Assembly (NCBI RefSeq): GCF_041146345.1
Contig: NW_027191413.1
Coordinates: 2,790,001 to 2,854,000 of the forward strand
DNA: 64,000 nt
Direction: 5' to 3'
Origin: Neodothiora populina
Taxonomy: Eukaryota
This document shows, piece by piece, positions 17,967 through 44,110 of the stretch. The position numbers and the translations under genes are program-made. The first letter of the stretch is position 1, and every line of letters begins with the position of its first letter. The notes beneath the pieces are model-generated. The model was not told the DNA's origin. It did no database searches and saw only the letters and a list, made by a program, of their open reading frames with translations.

Positions 17967-18089
17967 ACACTGGTGCCCAGGCCTATACCGATTAACATTA
18001 CCTCCCACATTGCATGATCATCAATTATAGCTTGAACTTGCTCCCATCGTCCAGATATATGCCAGAGCCGGACACCATGTTGATGAGTG

Positions 18090-21000
18090 ATGATCAAGTT
18101 CTTCCAAGTCTGTGGTCTGTTGGAAAGACTCGAAAACATCGCGCGCCATGACCCACCTTACAACAGCAAGGAGATAAGCGAGCACAATCTTGACGAAACA
18201 ACTAGGTGGTTCAAATCGAATCGCGAACTCATCGATGCTTCAGATGCAAAGTCCTCCTCTGCCTTTTTGTCGACGTTACTTCCGCACAAACGCAAGGATC
18301 GAGTATACGGCATCCAAAGCGCAACACTCGTCAAGATACTCGGAAGATGTCTGGGCCTGAATGCTTCGAAGCGACATGACCTCGCGCTCCACAAAATTCC
18401 CGGCAATGGGGACTTGGGTGACTGCGTCGAGCGTGTTCTCCTTAGGGGAGGCCCACCAGCAATGCATGCGGTCAGCATTGTAGAAGTGGACGACCTCATG
18501 CAATGTCTTGCCAGTCAGAACCGCTTCTCCGCTGCTAACATGCAAGCCCCCTCACGATCTCCTGATGACCGTGAGATAAGACTGAAGGTTCTCCTGTTGC
18601 GAATGACTGCCATTGAAACCAAGTGGATCACTCGGTTGATCTTGAAGGATCTTTCACCAGCTACATTAGACGAGCCCTTTGTGTTACGCCTGTTTCACTT
18701 TCTGATCTGTGATATTTTGATGATTCACAATGGAATCGAGGCAGCAACAAAAGTGCTCAAGACATCCTTCCCGAGCTACCCCAGCCAGCCTGATCCGCAA
18801 TCCCGTATCATCCTCAGGCAGACTGCGGCAGCCTCAATGAGACCGATTGTCGGCACAATGATCAGCCGTTCTGCATTCTGCAAAGCACGCTCGATACAAC
18901 ACTGCCTGAACATGACAGCCGAGCGCAGGTGGTTGATTGATCGCAAGTACGACGGAGAATATTGTCAAATACACGTTGATCTCCGCAACGAGGGCAATTG
19001 GGTCAGGATATATTCCAAGAGCGGTCGAGACTCGACACAAGACCGGAAAGGACTGCACGACACCATTCGCGAGTGCCTTCGTATAGGTACGGACAGGTGT
19101 CAAATCAAACGGCAGTGCATACTCGTCGGCGAGATGGTAGTCTACAGCGAGACGGACAAGTGTATAGTCAGCTTCGACAGGATCAGAAACCACGTATCGC
19201 GCGCCGGGATCTTTCTCGGTACAGGGCAAGACACGCCAGCCAAAGCTGGAGAGCATCTCATGATAGTCTTTTTTGACTTACTGCTTCTGGATGACGAAAA
19301 TATACTCAACCAGTTAATCGAGCAACGTAGACACCGTCTGAGCTCGCTGTACAAAAAGATCGATGGGAGAGCCCAGACATCTGAGTGCACAGTGATAGAC
19401 TTTGGAAGCCCCGGAGCAGAACGTAAGCTGATGCACCAATTTGCGGCTTCGAATGCATTACGCCACGAGGGGCTAGTGCTCAAAGCATGCGACGTTCCCT
19501 ACCTGGTCATACCCTCGTCAGGTGCGAGCAGCGACACCAGACCAACCTGTCACGCCGCCATCAAGTTGAAGAAGGATTATGTCGCAGGAATGGGAGACGA
19601 GGCAGATTTCGCCGTGATAGGGGCATCCTACAGTGCTCAAGAAGCCAACAAACGTCCAGAGCTCGATCTCAGCTGGACGCACTTCCACCTCGGTTGCCTC
19701 GTGAATGAGGCTGATGTCACAAGACTCCAAGTCGATCCGATATTCAAGATCGTGGGAACGATCTCGATGGATCAGTGCATTCCAGTTGCCATCTTGCAGC
19801 AGATCAATGCTGAAGGCAAGTTTTTTGCTGAACGACCGGCCTCAAGTTTGCGTGTGCATGCTGATCAGACATTTCAACCCGATGTATACTTCTCAAAGCC
19901 GTTTGTCTTCGAGGTGCTCGGGAGCTCTTTCTGCAGACCATCTGACTCTGGCTTCTACATGCTGAGACACCCTCGCGTCAAAAAAATGCATGGTGACAGA
20001 AGCTGGCGTGAATGTATCACCTTTGATGAACTGCAAGATGCGGCTCAAGAAGCATTGAGTGCGCCTATGGGTAGTGAGTCACAAGAGAAGCTTGAGTGGA
20101 TGGCACGGTTGGAACGCAGCTGCAAACGCAAGTTCGCAGAGATAAGCCGCAACGTTACCCCAACGTCTGCGCGAAGTGTGCCAACCCCTCGAAGCATGTC
20201 AGTCATGAAAAGTCGCAAGCGTGAGGCACTCGAACCGACAGCGGTATACGAAGATGATGTACAGTCATCGCCTCTGGCGCCCATTCGTCCCTTGCAACTC
20301 ACTAGAGGGTCAAGACTAGCGTCACAAGGCATTGTCCCGTTGCCAACTCCCGCCTCATCCTCACCCTTGCGAGATAGGCTTCCAGGCACAACCAATGTCT
20401 TGCCGGAAGGACGATATAGCTCAACACCATCGCAGGTCCACGAGCGATGTCTGCTTCAAGACGAGAATGCAGTTGCAGCCGATGCTAGTGGGAGAAATGG
20501 TGAATCGCCGCAGAAAAGACGTCACCAAGGACCGAAGGTTGTTAAGGCAATGCAGACAGCAGCCAAGATCTGTCCGGCTCAAAATGGGGTGCCAACGAAG
20601 GCAGCACCGGGAGAGAACAACAAAAAAGTCGCCGAAGATGTGAGAGAAGCTTGCCGACTCTTTCATAATACAGTCGTGTACACAGCAGGAGATGTGGAAG
20701 AGAGCAAGGATTTGATGCAAAAGCTGGAAGCAATCGGTGTCACTGTCGTCCCAAACCTGGCACATTGGGATCGAGACTCAGATTGTCACCGTCACCTTGA
20801 GGAGACGGTCAGCGAGAGCCAGGCATTCCCAGGTCTTCAAAAGGTTGTACTTGTAGACGGAAAGCAGATCAAGAGTGCATGCTCTACAGTGACCAAAGCA
20901 ATGCGTCTCAATCGAGGACATTTTCGGGAGAGTATAGAATTCTACGACCGTCGGGTTGCTCATGTAGATGAACAATCTGACAGGATCGGGGGCGGAGAAG

Positions 21001-21128
21001 CAAATAAGCAATCGTCAGCGAAGTGGAAGATGGGGACCTTGATGTACGACGAAAAGTCTGGAAGAAGTCGGTTTGTGCCTGCAGGCGTCGGGGGCGATTC
21101 AAGGGCGGAAACGACTTTTGGCATGTGA
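18090..21128 (+). CDS. Uncharacterised fungal ATP-dependent DNA ligase-like protein (DBD + adenylation + OB fold), intronless, ~1012 aa
   Basis: Nucleotidyltransferase motifs I RKYDGEY, III ILVGEMV, IIIa FFDLLLL, IV EGLVLK, V IKLKKDY and VI LRHPRVKKMHGDR. N-terminal DBD features DRVYGIQ, GDLGD and ETKWITRLILKDL. First in-frame ATG is 18090. Confidence 0.9.
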   Translation: MIKFFQVCGLLERLENIARHDPPYNSKEISEHNLDETTRWFKSNRELIDASDAKSSSAFLSTLLPHKRKDRVYGIQSATLVKILGRCLGLNASKRHDLALHKIPGNGDLGDCVERVLLRGGPPAMHAVSIVEVDDLMQCLASQNRFSAANMQAPSRSPDDREIRLKVLLLRMTAIETKWITRLILKDLSPATLDEPFVLRLFHFLICDILMIHNGIEAATKVLKTSFPSYPSQPDPQSRIILRQTAAASMRPIVGTMISRSAFCKARSIQHCLNMTAERRWLIDRKYDGEYCQIHVDLRNEGNWVRIYSKSGRDSTQDRKGLHDTIRECLRIGTDRCQIKRQCILVGEMVVYSETDKCIVSFDRIRNHVSRAGIFLGTGQDTPAKAGEHLMIVFFDLLLLDDENILNQLIEQRRHRLSSLYKKIDGRAQTSECTVIDFGSPGAERKLMHQFAASNALRHEGLVLKACDVPYLVIPSSGASSDTRPTCHAAIKLKKDYVAGMGDEADFAVIGASYSAQEANKRPELDLSWTHFHLGCLVNEADVTRLQVDPIFKIVGTISMDQCIPVAILQQINAEGKFFAERPASSLRVHADQTFQPDVYFSKPFVFEVLGSSFCRPSDSGFYMLRHPRVKKMHGDRSWRECITFDELQDAAQEALSAPMGSESQEKLEWMARLERSCKRKFAEISRNVTPTSARSVPTPRSMSVMKSRKREALEPTAVYEDDVQSSPLAPIRPLQLTRGSRLASQGIVPLPTPASSSPLRDRLPGTTNVLPEGRYSSTPSQVHERCLLQDENAVAADASGRNGESPQKRRHQGPKVVKAMQTAAKICPAQNGVPTKAAPGENNKKVAEDVREACRLFHNTVVYTAGDVEESKDLMQKLEAIGVTVVPNLAHWDRDSDCHRHLEETVSESQAFPGLQKVVLVDGKQIKSACSTVTKAMRLNRGHFRESIEFYDRRVAHVDEQSDRIGGGEANKQSSAKWKMGTLMYDEKSGRSRFVPAGVGGDSRAETTFGM

Positions 21129-21770
21129 CGGGCCGTGGGAGCGGTGAGTGGTACAAGTAATGGTAAGGTAGTGCAGCAAGATAGCATGATACAGGGCAGC
21201 GATTAGCCCTTTGAGTCGATTAAAAGCTTGATAAAGCTCTATCTTGACTCTGTTATCAAGGTGTCGGCATCAAATCATTTTGTGGAAGGTACTCGGCTAT
21301 TGCACGTCGAATTAGAATTGAGCTTGTAGCAGTATCCAAGCCACGGTACAGTATGTTGCACGCAATCAGCAGACCACCGCGTACTTTCTTCTCTCGATTT
21401 AGAACGACTTGTATTCTTATTACCGGGAATAACATGAGGGAAACTCAAGTAAGGCATTCGCACTGTAGCGGCTTCCGTCGGTCTTGGTGTAGAGTAGGTA
21501 CAGTACCCAAGGTACCTTAGGTAGAACAATGGTAGAGTATCCTCGGTGACGGAATGGCCCCTCTGACTCAAGACTGGAAGGTTAGTGGCTGCTGGATTAG
21601 GTCATCGGTCTTTATTAGCACCCGATCACATTGACTGACTACCTACCTTGTCGCTCTGTTACAACTACAGTACTGCACATTCTGTACCTATACCGTACCT
21701 TTATCGTGCAGCAGGAATACCAAAGTCAACTCAAGGCATTCTTCCTGATGATATTGACAGGTTGAGATTC

Positions 21771-21794
21771 TGATACTCTGATACTCTGATACTC
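21771..21794. repeat. (TGATACTC)3 tandem repeat
   Basis: Three perfect 8-nt copies read directly. Confidence 0.85.
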
Positions 21795-22740
21795 ACTGCT
21801 TCTGTGGCTGCCTGTTCCCAAACTTCACGCATCCGGACTGCGTCCATAACACTCTACATTGTCTTGGCGGGGGTGCCCAGATAACCATCACACAGTTGAT
21901 TGACCTACAGCATTGCCATTTCGCTCTGCCGACATTTGCGGCTGTCGCTACCCTTTGGAAATCATCTCCGGTGCGCCCTTGACCTCTAAACTCTTGACGG
22001 TGGTCAGTCCACGTCGCCGACCAGCGGAACACGAGTCATTCCATCAGCCAGCCTCTGTCAAAAGGTCATTCGGTTCCGGCACAGCAGCCAGAGGCTAGCA
22101 TTCCCAGGCAGAAGAGAAGACCGTTATACAGAGCCTGACACGAACGTGCGTTCGTCAGAGAAAGGACGGAAACAGGAAGAGACAAAAGATACCAAGGCAA
22201 CAGTCGGATCATAATCTGGCGGCGTAAACAAGCACAAGCACAAGCGAGCCAGCGACAAGAGCAGGACTGGCCGAAGAGAGTGGCAATACGAAAAGACAAG
22301 CGAAACAAAAGAAACATAGATAAAGTTGAGGGATCCCCAGTCAAAGAGTCTCCGGCCGGTTCAGGTCGTGTAGACTCTTCGGAACCAAACCGCCCTCAGT
22401 CAGACTGGCTGACAACCGCCGAATCAACGTTTCTTCTCCCTCTCTTTCTCCGCCCCCTCCTCCTCCGCCTCCTCTTCCCCCCTCACTTTCTCCACCTGCT
22501 GCTCCCTCTGTTCCCGTTCTACCAAATTACGGTCCGAGCACGATTGTCCCTCCGATCCAGCCGACGCGAGATCTCCACGCTTCGTTGACCTCCCCGAACA
22601 AGCGGCGCCGCAGTCCTTCGCCATCACCGCTCTCTGCCGCTGTTCCTGCGTTGCCTTTGTTGTCAGCGACACCTTCACATCTTGATTCGCCTCCTGCCAA
22701 GCGACACAAGGGTGCAGCATCTGCCTCGTACCCCGAGAAT

Positions 22741-24905
22741 ATGAGACATGACAATCCTGACGAGTCTTCTCCGAACGGCAGCCACATACTGTCACAGCCC
22801 CTGTCGAATGGTTCTAGCAACAATGCTGATTCTACAAAGTCTCGCCTTATGAGCAACGGTTCGACATCTGACGCCCGCACAAATGGCCACTCTTTCGAGA
22901 GGCCGACCGCCCCTTTCTTCGGCCACGACCGGGAGGAGGTGACGCGCATACTCATACAGAGTCTGTCTGAATTAGGCTATCACAATGCTGCGAGCACTTT
23001 GAGCAGGGACAGCGGCTTCGAACTCGAGCTTCCCACTGTCGCTGCCTTCAGATCTGCCATTCATGCTGGTGAGTGGGCTGAAGCCGAGGCACTTCTATTT
23101 GGCCGGCGACAGGACAACGGTATCTCACTCAACCTTGCCTACCCACTCCTCAGCGATAAGACGAGTGGCGCTTCTTCGCCGGCGATCCACTCGGCTGGCC
23201 TGCCCCTGGCCGAGTCTGCTGATCGTCATGAGATGCTCTTCCTCATCCGTCAACAGAAATACCTCGAACTGCTGGAGAGTGGCGATCTGGCTACCGCGCT
23301 CATGGTCCTTCGTCAAGAGCTGACTCCGCTACATCAAGACGTGTCACGCCTACATACGCTTTCGAGGTACTGACGAGCCTCATGTAGTCCTTGTTCTATG
23401 AATTCCGCTGATGTTTCCTAGTCTGATAATGTGTGACTCAGCAAGTGATTTACGATCTCAAGCGAACTGGGACGGCTCCGCAGGTCAATCTCGGAATAGT
23501 TTGCTTTCCGAGCTATCAAGTGAGTCTTCTAGTCATCTTCTCTGCTCTCGTTCTCCGCTTCGTATCTTCAACTAATCTTTCCGAAGAATCGATATCGCCG
23601 TCGGTTATGATACCTGAACATCGCTTGGCTGTTTTACTAGATCAAGTGCAGGATCATCAGATCCGCCAATGTCTCTACCACAATACAACTACGCCACCAT
23701 CGCTCTACCATGATCATGTTTGCGATGGCAATGACTTTCCTCTACACATTCTTCAGGAACTCAAAGATCATACTGACGAGGTCTGGAATCTCGAATTCTC
23801 ACACAGCGGATCCATGCTCGCTTCTGCGGGAAAGGACAATAACGTCATCATATATAACACCAACAACTGGCGGCAGTTGTGGAACTTCCAAGAAATTCAC
23901 GATAGCGGCTCCAGCGACCAAGGCGTGTGTTATGTTACATGGAGTCCTGACGACCGTTATCTGCTCAGCTGTTCACAAGCCAAAGAGATCGTCATCTACG
24001 ACACCAAGAGTGGATACAAGATGGGTTGTATTGACCACTTCACCTATCCTGTGACAACTGCAGCATGGGCTCCTGACGGAGGCAGTTTTGTCGTAGGCTC
24101 GCAAGACGCCGATCGGCCACTCGGCCTTTATCAGCTTACAGACCAGAAGTTGATCCATGCCTGGTACAGCGATGACTCGAGAAAGCTTCGTGTCAATGAT
24201 TGCAGCATGTCCCCGGATGGCAGTCGATTAGCGGCCATCACGGACGACAACAGAGTCCTCGTATACGACTTCCAGACCAAAGTTAAGATAGCCGACTGGT
24301 ACATGGAAGACAAACTTACCTGCGTCACTCTCGGTCGTGATGGTAAGACCGTGCTAATCAGCATGAACGAAGGTCGCCTGATGCTTCTGGATTCCACGAC
24401 TGGAGAGATTGTGCAGCGATATGCCGGTCTCAAGCAGAGCCAATTCGTCATTCGAAGTGCCTTTGGGGGCGCGAACGAGAATTTTGTCGTTAGTGGAAGC
24501 GAAGGTGAGTTCCTCCCGAAAACTCTTCTTGGCGACGAACGTCATCAACAACACAGAAAGTGGAAGGAGCGGATCGGAAGCTAAGATATGCCTGGCGCTA
24601 ACTCGGGTCACACAGATTCACGTCTCTACATCTGGCGAACACAGACAGGTCAACAGGTCGCTGCTCTAGAGGCGCATCACCCGGGCACTGTCAACTGCGT
24701 GGCCTGGCACCCGACTGACTTTGGCATATTCGCGTCCGCTGGAGATGATCATAAAGTCAAGATGTATGTCGTTGCAGCTTCCCATATACTGATCTTGTCA
24801 ACGATAATGCTGACCATCCACCACAGATGGTCAAATGACTATGTAGCCAGGCGTGCGTCCGCACTACTTGGCGGATTCGGACGAAACCTCGGTGACGGGC
24901 TCTGA
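22741..24905 (+). CDS. GID7: GID/CTLH complex WD40 subunit (Gid7/WDR26); true start may be a CUG at 22405
   Basis: Exons 22741-23366, 23422-23519, 23587-24504, 24616-24763, 24827-24905. LisH-like DREEVTRILIQSLSELGY, CTLH FLIRQQKYLELLE, PSVMIPEHRLAVLL, and WD repeats HTDEVW..., FVIRSAFGG, FASAGDDHKVKIW. Confidence 0.92.
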
Positions 24906-43192: not shown

Positions 43193-44099
43193 GTTTGATC
43201 TAGATGAGCAGAGAGTGGTGGTGATGGTGCAACCTTTCTTGCTCTTTTTCGTTCTCATATCTTCACTTGTATGAACACTGTATATAGTACTATACCTGAA
43301 GGAGCGTTTTTATTTTGATCAAGAAATCGAAAGCTAGATGGCTTGATGCTGCGGCTTATTATTACCTCTTCCTGTCTTGTTCGCTGGTTCTCTCTTGCAC
43401 ACATCATTGCGTACTGTACATACCACCGTATCTTGTTTGACAATACCTGACAGGCAAATAACGTCTACTCAAGTCAGCGTCGGTCGCAGACGGGGCGCAG
43501 GTAGCGGGCAGCGGCGGCGGGCGAAAAGACTCCCGATTGACTGTCGGACTTTTCTGCCACTTAGTGCTGCGACTACTCCGCAATAATTATATCGATCATA
43601 ATACTGCTGTCCGTACCTGCCTGTCTAGTTTGATCTACTCTATTTTTGCTGTACCGTACTGTATTGCCACTTATACGCCCGGAAAGGAATCACGGAATCG
43701 AGAAATACGGCATTTTGGTCCTCTGGACTTTTGAATTTGGACGCTTAGATATCATACGACTCTGAACGGACGGACTAGGGACCTTTGTCTTTCGCAGCGC
43801 AACCGCATCAAGGCCAACGACTACAGAATTCGCTTTGTTTGTTCAAGTCGACTCTCTCATCACCCGTCGCATTCTACGGACGGCTTGTTTCCGGCATCTG
43901 CGACAGCGCTTTCTCTCTCCTTCCATCTTGGAACAATCTCAAAACCACGGAGTCAAAGAACGCCTCGATTGCGATTAATCATCTGGTTTTCTGCAAATCT
44001 CTGCTGCTGAAAGACGAAAGTGCGGAGATAACAGGGCTGTAGAAAGAGCTGCAGAGTCAGAACTTGAAGGGTAGTGACAGAAGACAAAAGAACGAAAAA

Positions 44100-44110
44100 A
44101 TGTCGTTTCC

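Follow-up and report, generated by a model that had tools for sequence, protein, structure and literature searches.

Translation from a codon other than AUG has been described for animal WDR26, and near-cognate starts have been described in other genes of filamentous fungi. In its passages on WDR26, Ivanov et al. 2011 (PMC3105428) report an N-terminal extension that is initiated at ACG or CUG and conserved in vertebrates as well as an AUU-initiated extension in Drosophila, judge the two to be independent, and read a commercial antibody blot as two WDR26 products ~10 kDa apart; those passages do not mention a fungal extension. The part of a 2022 survey (PMC9789052) that deals with this gene places WDR26 among those for which GENCODE v35 still lacks an annotated near-cognate proteoform or an intact version of the extension. 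For Pezizomycotina, the relevant sections of Ivanov et al. 2017 (PMC5487733) describe a near-cognate-initiated N-terminal extension of cpc-1, the GCN4 homologue, and mention CUG initiation of IDI-4 in Podospora anserina, which is conserved in Neurospora. In Saccharomyces cerevisiae GID7 itself, upstream open reading frames (uORFs) that begin with AUG raise reporter expression under salt stress, according to the passage on this gene in PMC3564994. In the full texts that our literature search covered, subscription journals being excluded, a non-AUG start was nowhere reported for fungal GID7/WDR26. Here, we analyze the GID7/WDR26 gene in a stretch of 64,000 nucleotides (nt) from Neodothiora populina (NCBI RefSeq assembly GCF_041146345.1, contig NW_027191413.1, positions 2,790,001 to 2,854,000 of the forward strand), which we call the window and number from its first letter. 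An earlier sequence-only reading of the window had proposed a CUG-initiated extension of this gene and had noted that human WDR26 was reported to have a conserved non-AUG extension, a statement that the 2011 paper bears out.

We conclude that translation of the window gene probably starts at CUG 22405 and that the gene probably makes a long and a short isoform. The underlying architecture, comprising start codon, context, frame, protein motifs, and AUG depletion, is orthologous and conserved across at least 42 diverged lineages, as our comparisons show, and it is from this pattern that we infer initiation at the CUG and production of both isoforms. In the mechanism that we propose, scanning ribosomes would traverse a long AUG-free leader, and some of them would initiate at CUG 22405, whose context is good (A at –3, G at +4), to make a protein with 112 additional N-terminal residues. 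Other ribosomes would scan through the extension, which is kept free of AUG in all three frames, and would initiate at AUG 22741 to make the short protein. The long isoform would carry the most conserved parts of the extension, namely L/V-A-D at its very beginning, the RRRR-S-x-S cluster, and, immediately 5' of the internal Met, the KRRR cluster.

The elements named by the sequence-only reading are all present in the window. An in-frame TGA on the + strand (22327..22329) forms the 5' limit of a frame that is open from 22330 to 23373 and has its first ATG at 22741, 137 codons past the stop. The proposed start codon, CTG 22405..22407, is in this frame and sits 336 nt or 112 codons before ATG 22741; in its context, gtcagaCTGgct, position –3 (22402) is A and position +4 (22408) is G. 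Because only ATC 22333 and AGG 22363 precede it as in-frame near-cognate codons after the TGA, CTG 22405 is the first efficient start candidate. A position-wise comparison of the initiation context gtcagaCTGgctgac (22399..22413, + strand) with the composition of 41 lineage representatives showed matches to the family consensus TCGTC CTG GCN GAC at –6, –5, –4, +4, +5, +7, +8, and +9, together with a purine (A) at –3. The predicted extension (22405..22740, + strand) is Pro/Ser-rich, presumably disordered, and ATG-free in every frame, and the profile score and the substitution pattern of relatives described below support its assignment. Its translation contains the polyproline tract SLSPPPPPPPPLPPSLSPP (22441..22497, + strand), KRRRS (22600–22614), and KRHK (22699–22710). 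The polyproline tract is encoded by a CT-rich run and, by alignment, is specific to the window, with relatives having different Pro/Ser/Thr-rich sequence at this place. The conserved AUG (22741..22743, + strand; context gagaatATGa), which would start the short isoform, encodes the nearly invariant M138 and is the first + strand ATG after 21748. A start-enhancing hairpin downstream of the CTG is not supported, as the RNA fold of 22380–22500 was no more stable than shuffles (z = +0.85) and sequence 3' of the CTG is G-poor in relatives too. Taken alone, the window sequence leaves the case for a CUG start undecided, and the evidence that carries our conclusion comes from related loci.

First, the start codon itself is conserved. 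We examined 80 fungal metagenome loci with flanks, all of which contain the LisH anchor; 70 reach the start site, and in the other 10 the contig ends short of it. The codon aligned with window CTG 22405 was CTG in 62 loci (51 + 11) and GTG in four (L070, L072, L074, and L078), and GTG also occurred in three loci (L033, L042, and L043) within a short extension of 26 codons that begins 'stop ACC GTG GCT'. These three short extensions retain both basic clusters, KRPRSASP and KR(G/A)R before the conserved Met, which suggests that the clusters are the selected content of the extension. A conserved near-cognate codon, which the sequence-only reading had proposed to look for in relatives along with a conserved open frame and coding-type evolution, was therefore found in 69 of the 70 assessable loci, and in these 69 loci the start site was never CTC, CTT, CTA, TTA, TTG, GTC, GTT, or GTA. 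When loci were collapsed at ≥90% nucleotide identity, 42 lineages besides the window remained, with CTG in 39 and GTG in three. As a control, three invariant leucines of the LisH domain in the same 42 loci are encoded by all six Leu codons, with CTG at 27%, 38%, and 40%, and the share of CTG among 773 downstream Leu codons is 24.7%. Because the control leucines vary and synonymous sites are saturated across this sample, the invariance of the CTG does not reflect inherited similarity. The context is conserved as well: among the 42 lineages, –3 is G in 40 and A in two, +4 is G in all 42, +5 is C in 37, and the synonymous positions –4, –1, and +9 are conserved at 83–98%. Every locus examined had a purine at –3 and G at +4.

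Second, the segment between the CTG and the conserved AUG evolves as protein-coding sequence. When a frame-blind nucleotide pattern derived from the consensus was scanned within 1 kb 5' of the LisH in the 80 loci, matches were found in 47, and all 47 were in phase with the LisH with no stop between, whereas 1/3 would be expected in phase by chance; the same pattern had just five further matches in 757 kb. This result supports a conserved open frame. Frame-blind nucleotide alignments of 10 independent pairs gave 201, 167, and 245 mismatches at the three codon phases (chi-square p = 5.6e-4), and indels in the extensions of the closest pairs were multiples of 3. Protein-guided alignments of 15 independent pairs gave 492, 409, and 661 mismatches, with phase 3 highest in 15/15, although this method is biased toward such a result. 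Coding-type evolution is thus supported by codon-phase mismatch bias rather than by a formal dN/dS. Overall, the extension appears to be a fast-evolving, weakly constrained coding region, presumably disordered, in which constraint is weak outside three short motifs.

These motifs also emerged from protein comparisons. When the window frame, translated from stop to intron (P0001), was used as query for a profile-free HMMER scan against 1.84 billion representative proteins, 713 matches were obtained at E ≤ 1e-3, and in 56 of the best 150 of these the alignment starts before query residue 130, i.e. inside the extension. Four N-terminal islands are shared: [L/V]-A-D-[E/D/N/Q]; P-x-A-x-D-x-P, in some sequences; RRRR(R)-S-x-S; and KRRR at 5–15 residues before Met M138. 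Basic cluster 1 of the window (KRRRSPS; 22600..22620, + strand) corresponds to the RRRR(R)-S-x-S island and includes R92, and basic cluster 2 (KRHK; 22699..22710, + strand) corresponds to the KRRR island and includes K124 and R125; all three residues are invariant in an alignment of 23 sequences. Of 43 lineages, 38 have a basic run with Ser after it and 41 have a KRRR-type second cluster. The extension was found in Sordariomycetes (Sordaria, Apiospora), Leotiomycetes (Sclerotinia), Dothideomycetes (Elsinoe, Teratosphaeriaceae), and Eurotiomycetes (Aspergillus). A protein search with window residues 1–140 for longer relatives returned none at E ≤ 0.01, but this search was weak, with polyproline words probably crowding out relatives. 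Basophilic kinases act at R-R-x-S sites, a pattern that fits the basic clusters. The clusters may be nuclear-localization signals, basophilic-kinase sites, or both, and through them the long isoform could differ in its location or regulation.

Third, sequence upstream of the CTG does not behave as part of the protein. Several public gene models take the coding extension to begin at an AUG that lies in an upstream exon and is joined to this frame by splicing; several annotated relatives do have an extra N-terminus from upstream ATGs, and the window has ATGs 5' of 21748. These upstream sequences are, however, mutually unrelated. In annotated proteins, sequence upstream of L/V-A-D is unrelated between species, and, of 94 relatives with the LisH lead-in, 22 start precisely at the conserved Met, and others use unrelated upstream ATGs. 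Models differ even within one species, as four Aspergillus fumigatus models from a single 90% cluster (P0065, P0174, P0175, and P0176) have four lengths (712, 666, 743, and 697 aa) and two N-termini. Moreover, an ATG in frame and upstream of the start site is absent from every locus, and seven loci have an in-frame stop 2–4 codons 5' of the CTG (e.g. 'tag cca gtc gtc CTG' in L053, 'tga gtc aac CTG' in L066/L067, and also L031 and L044/L045), with neither a consistent AG acceptor nor any further near-cognate codon between the stop and the CTG. Upstream of the CTG, conservation is at the nucleotide level only, and frame shifts and in-frame stops are tolerated. In two whole contigs, L010 and L032, the open reading frame (ORF) continues uninterrupted from the CTG for 798 and 718 codons, and these contigs look like spliced mRNA; they carry 320 and 291 nt 5' of the CTG, and the ATGs in these ~300-nt segments are out-of-frame only. 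An upstream exon would also leave the synonymous invariance of the CTG unexplained, and we consider it very unlikely that the frame is entered in this way.

If the CUG start is correct, public models of this GID/CTLH subunit are wrong or inconsistent at the N-terminus, as some begin only at the internal Met and others have spurious exons added upstream, and the conserved basic motifs would have been overlooked because of this truncation or mis-extension. Two further candidates were set aside. Three proteins that begin 'MAD' (P0105, P0148, and P0101) are not evidence for an ATG at the start site in some species, as each of them is an ORF called in an assembly and lacks annotation; the ORF caller may have rendered a GTG start as Met, since T-V-A-D stands there in the annotated cluster mate of P0148 (P0152, Sordaria brevicollis). 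A translation start farther upstream, from a conserved 'SGTPA', was rejected, as conservation there is at the nucleotide level, with differing frames and in-frame stops in some lineages.

Fourth, ATG is depleted in a pattern expected of leaky scanning. The window has no + strand ATG between 21748 and 22741, in agreement with the sequence-only reading, and no ATG-free gap on either strand of the 64-kb window is longer than these 993 nt (the next longest are 754 nt on the + strand and 550 nt on the – strand). The 989-nt segment contains 0 ATG and 17 CAT, compared with ~11 ATG expected from base composition or ~19 from the + strand mean of the window. An ATG scan assigned the part before the CTG (21751..22404, + strand; 654 nt, ATG-free in every frame) as the presumed 5' leader. 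In the 42 lineages, extensions from CTG to AUG total 14,367 nt and contain six ATG, versus ~123 expected, and 192 CAT, with no ATG at all in 36/42. The 300 nt 5' of the CTG contain 62 ATG, versus ~130 expected, and 211 CAT, and the 300 nt past the conserved AUG contain 223 ATG versus 205 CAT. In all 39 lineages that have an upstream ATG in the available sequence, the nearest such ATGs open short uORFs that close before the CTG. The conserved AUG has a purine at –3 in 43/43 lineages and never G at +4. Avoidance of out-of-frame ATGs within a coding extension argues that ribosomes passing the CUG must reach the next AUG.

This depletion also bears on the number of isoforms. The CUG could be the sole start, with the conserved Met an internal residue kept for protein function and one long isoform made, and the Met does lie inside a conserved motif, K-R-R-R-x(3-8)-M-R-x-D, that may be constrained at the protein level. 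A single start leaves unexplained, however, why ATGs both in and out of frame are nearly absent from CUG to AUG. Near-cognate start codons are, in addition, usually inefficient. We consider a CUG-only gene improbable, and the reading of leaky CUG/AUG initiation offered earlier is supported by the combination of conserved CTG/GTG, context, frame, all-frame ATG depletion, and conserved AUG.

Leaders of the related loci have features of their own. Four diverged lineages (L014, L017, L022, and L040) share a conserved AUG uORF of 24 codons that lies 160–320 nt before the CTG, starts in the context agaATGa, encodes a peptide ending ...(I/V)HAP(S/I)D, and ends 162–239 nt 5' of the CTG. The window has no counterpart of this uORF, as the 657 nt 5' of its CTG hold no ATG. 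Many loci (e.g. L014, L016, L023, L054, and L065) have a conserved nucleotide block, GCGG-N5-CCGC, 13–27 nt before the CTG, which could fold into a 4-bp hairpin whose loop varies; the window lacks this block, and frame shifts and in-frame stops in some clades indicate that it is non-coding leader sequence. Elsewhere in the window, the second-longest ATG-free stretch (43346–44100, + strand; 754 nt) lies ahead of a small ORF that starts at 44100 and whose frame is closed by a stop 19 codons before this start; the stretch represents an AUG-free leader without an extension.

The window belongs to the family defined by its relatives. An extension profile was built from the 42 relatives only, with the window left out. 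On the window, position 1 of this profile falls on residue L26, encoded by the CTG, and the alignment is colinear through KRRRS to KRHK. The profile scored 15.9 bits in frame 0 of the window, –2.3 in frame +1, –1.1 in frame +2, and –12.3 on the reversed sequence, and none of 1000 composition-preserving shuffles attained the window score (best, 5.3 bits).

Several observations weigh against a CUG start. For the window, the profile score just given is modest, bases –3 to –1 are AGA rather than the GTC of the family, and the P-x-A-x-D-x-P motif, present in 17/43 lineages, is missing; in-frame AUC 22333 could serve as a minor start farther upstream. Among the related loci, L079 has no clear start motif, and its best-guess codon is CTT. 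The context evidence is partly dependent on protein constraint, because a conserved Ala/Glu/Asp codon also yields G at +4 and C at +5. In 60 profile-placed loci, the stretch from the upstream stop (or the end of the contig) to the start site contains no in-frame ATG, but the placement profile used hand-picked motif positions, and this test is not fully independent. The open frame by itself is weak evidence, because the other frames over 22405–22740 are nearly open too, with one stop in frame +1 and two in frame +2. Finally, a log-odds score of codon usage, for which the window's long ORFs served as training set, gave the extension –3.2 bits in frame 0, no better than frame +1, whereas the 60 codons past ATG 22741 scored +10.2 bits versus –19.6 and –33.3 in the other frames. 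We think that the missing codon-usage signal of the extension stems from its low-complexity composition.

The missing codon-usage signal and the nearly open alternative frames are also what one would see if the region were only a long AUG-free 5' leader that is not translated and merely happens to be open in C-rich sequence; the depletion of ATG would follow from a long leader alone. Such a leader provides no reason, however, for CTG/GTG to be invariant at a synonymous site in 42/42 lineages when control leucines vary freely, for the frame to be retained in every frame-blind match and to show a coding-type substitution bias, or for protein motifs to be conserved and to occur colinearly in the window. 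An untranslated leader is in our judgment extremely unlikely.

A different possibility is that the feature is real in the family and has fallen into disuse in N. populina, with transcription starting in or after the CT-rich run at 22440–22500 and only the short protein being made. Pyrimidine tracts occur near fungal transcription starts, and because the CT-rich run resembles such tracts, a window-specific transcription start 3' of the CUG may exist, which is a further point against use of the CUG here. The polyproline tract encoded by this long CT run is peculiar to the window, and the weak codon-usage signal fits disuse as well. Nevertheless, the window keeps the CTG, its context, the 112-codon frame, both basic clusters in order, and 657 ATG-free nt upstream, and these features would not be maintained unless used. 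Disuse in this species therefore seems quite unlikely, and initiation at CUG 22405 with production of both isoforms remains the interpretation that we prefer.

Assignment of the gene rests on its domains. Exon 1 encodes a GID7/WDR26-type LisH (Pfam PF23627 LisH_WDR26; 57.8 bits, E = 6.9e-16, cut-off 27) at P0001 residues 193–233. The LisH is followed by a match to the TPR1-like CTLH-containing domain PF21889 that, at 25.7 bits, is slightly below the cut-off of 27, and the CTLH stretch of the window pairs with human WDR26 residues 194–240 (32.3 bits). A WD40 propeller lies at the C-terminus (PF00400 WD40, 70.5 bits, cut-off 27, plus many propeller families; window 23583–24503), and the best solved-structure relative of the window protein is human WDR26 (8qbn). 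From its LisH, its WD40 propeller, and this solved relative, we assign the gene to GID7/WDR26 as the Pezizomycotina orthologue; in the GID/CTLH ubiquitin ligase, GID7/WDR26 is the subunit with LisH-CTLH-WD40 architecture. The remainder of exon 1 (22741..23366, + strand), delimited by Pfam, tblastn, and a GT donor at 23367, encodes a disordered Asn/Ser/Gly-rich stretch, the LisH, and the beginning of the CTLH. Downstream exons with short introns and inferred junctions (23422..24905, + strand; from tblastn, Pfam, and the stop codon) encode the CTLH and the WD40 propeller. Using P0003, tblastn gave blocks at 23423–23497 and 23589–24836, and using two full-length relatives it placed the end of exon 1 at 23366/7, a small exon at 23422–23497, and the propeller from 23589 on; the stop codon of the frame is at 24903–24905. 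Directly 5' of the gene on the + strand is an uninterrupted open frame of 1013 codons (18087–21128) encoding a K-Y-D-G-E motif, which we take to resemble the adenylation site of ATP-dependent DNA ligases.

How does this locus compare with the systems described above? The vertebrate and fly WDR26 extensions belong to the same gene family and use the same device, an in-frame near-cognate start 5' of a conserved AUG. The fungal extension has motifs of its own (L/V-A-D, RRRR-S-x-S, and KRRR), and the alignment to the solved human WDR26 chain begins only at about window residue 128. Because the passages on WDR26 in PMC3105428 judge the fly and vertebrate extensions to be independent, the fungal extension may be a third independent origin. 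The cpc-1 gene is found in the same fungal group and, in the sections of PMC5487733 on this gene, is supported by the same kind of evidence: an open frame 5' of the AUG, conserved near-cognate codons in good context, and purifying selection. As described there, cpc-1 has several near-cognate codons that are conserved in 73–98 of 100 species and alternate with regulatory AUG uORFs, and in vitro experiments showed initiation. GID7, by contrast, has a single predicted site, which is CUG/GUG in 42/42 lineages, and an AUG-free extension. IDI-4, as mentioned in the same paper, resembles GID7 in having a CUG start in a filamentous ascomycete and differs in being a bZIP factor for which CUG is proposed as the sole start. 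The AUG uORFs of S. cerevisiae GID7 are a different device from a CUG-initiated extension. Among near-cognate starts in filamentous fungi, the window gene and its relatives would thus provide an unusually clean and deeply conserved case, with one site and an AUG-free extension that fits leaky scanning. It is conceivable, if doubtful, that a non-AUG extension is a recurrent or ancient property of WDR26/GID7 and that start-codon stringency sets the ratio of isoforms, tuning the place or assembly of the GID/CTLH complex. If so, stringency, governed by eIF1/eIF5 together with the stress or nutrient state of the cell, would act as a translational switch on a glucose-responsive E3 ligase. Placed beside the vertebrate and fly cases, the fungal case raises the question of why the E3 subunit WDR26/GID7 repeatedly ties its N-terminus to start-codon stringency.

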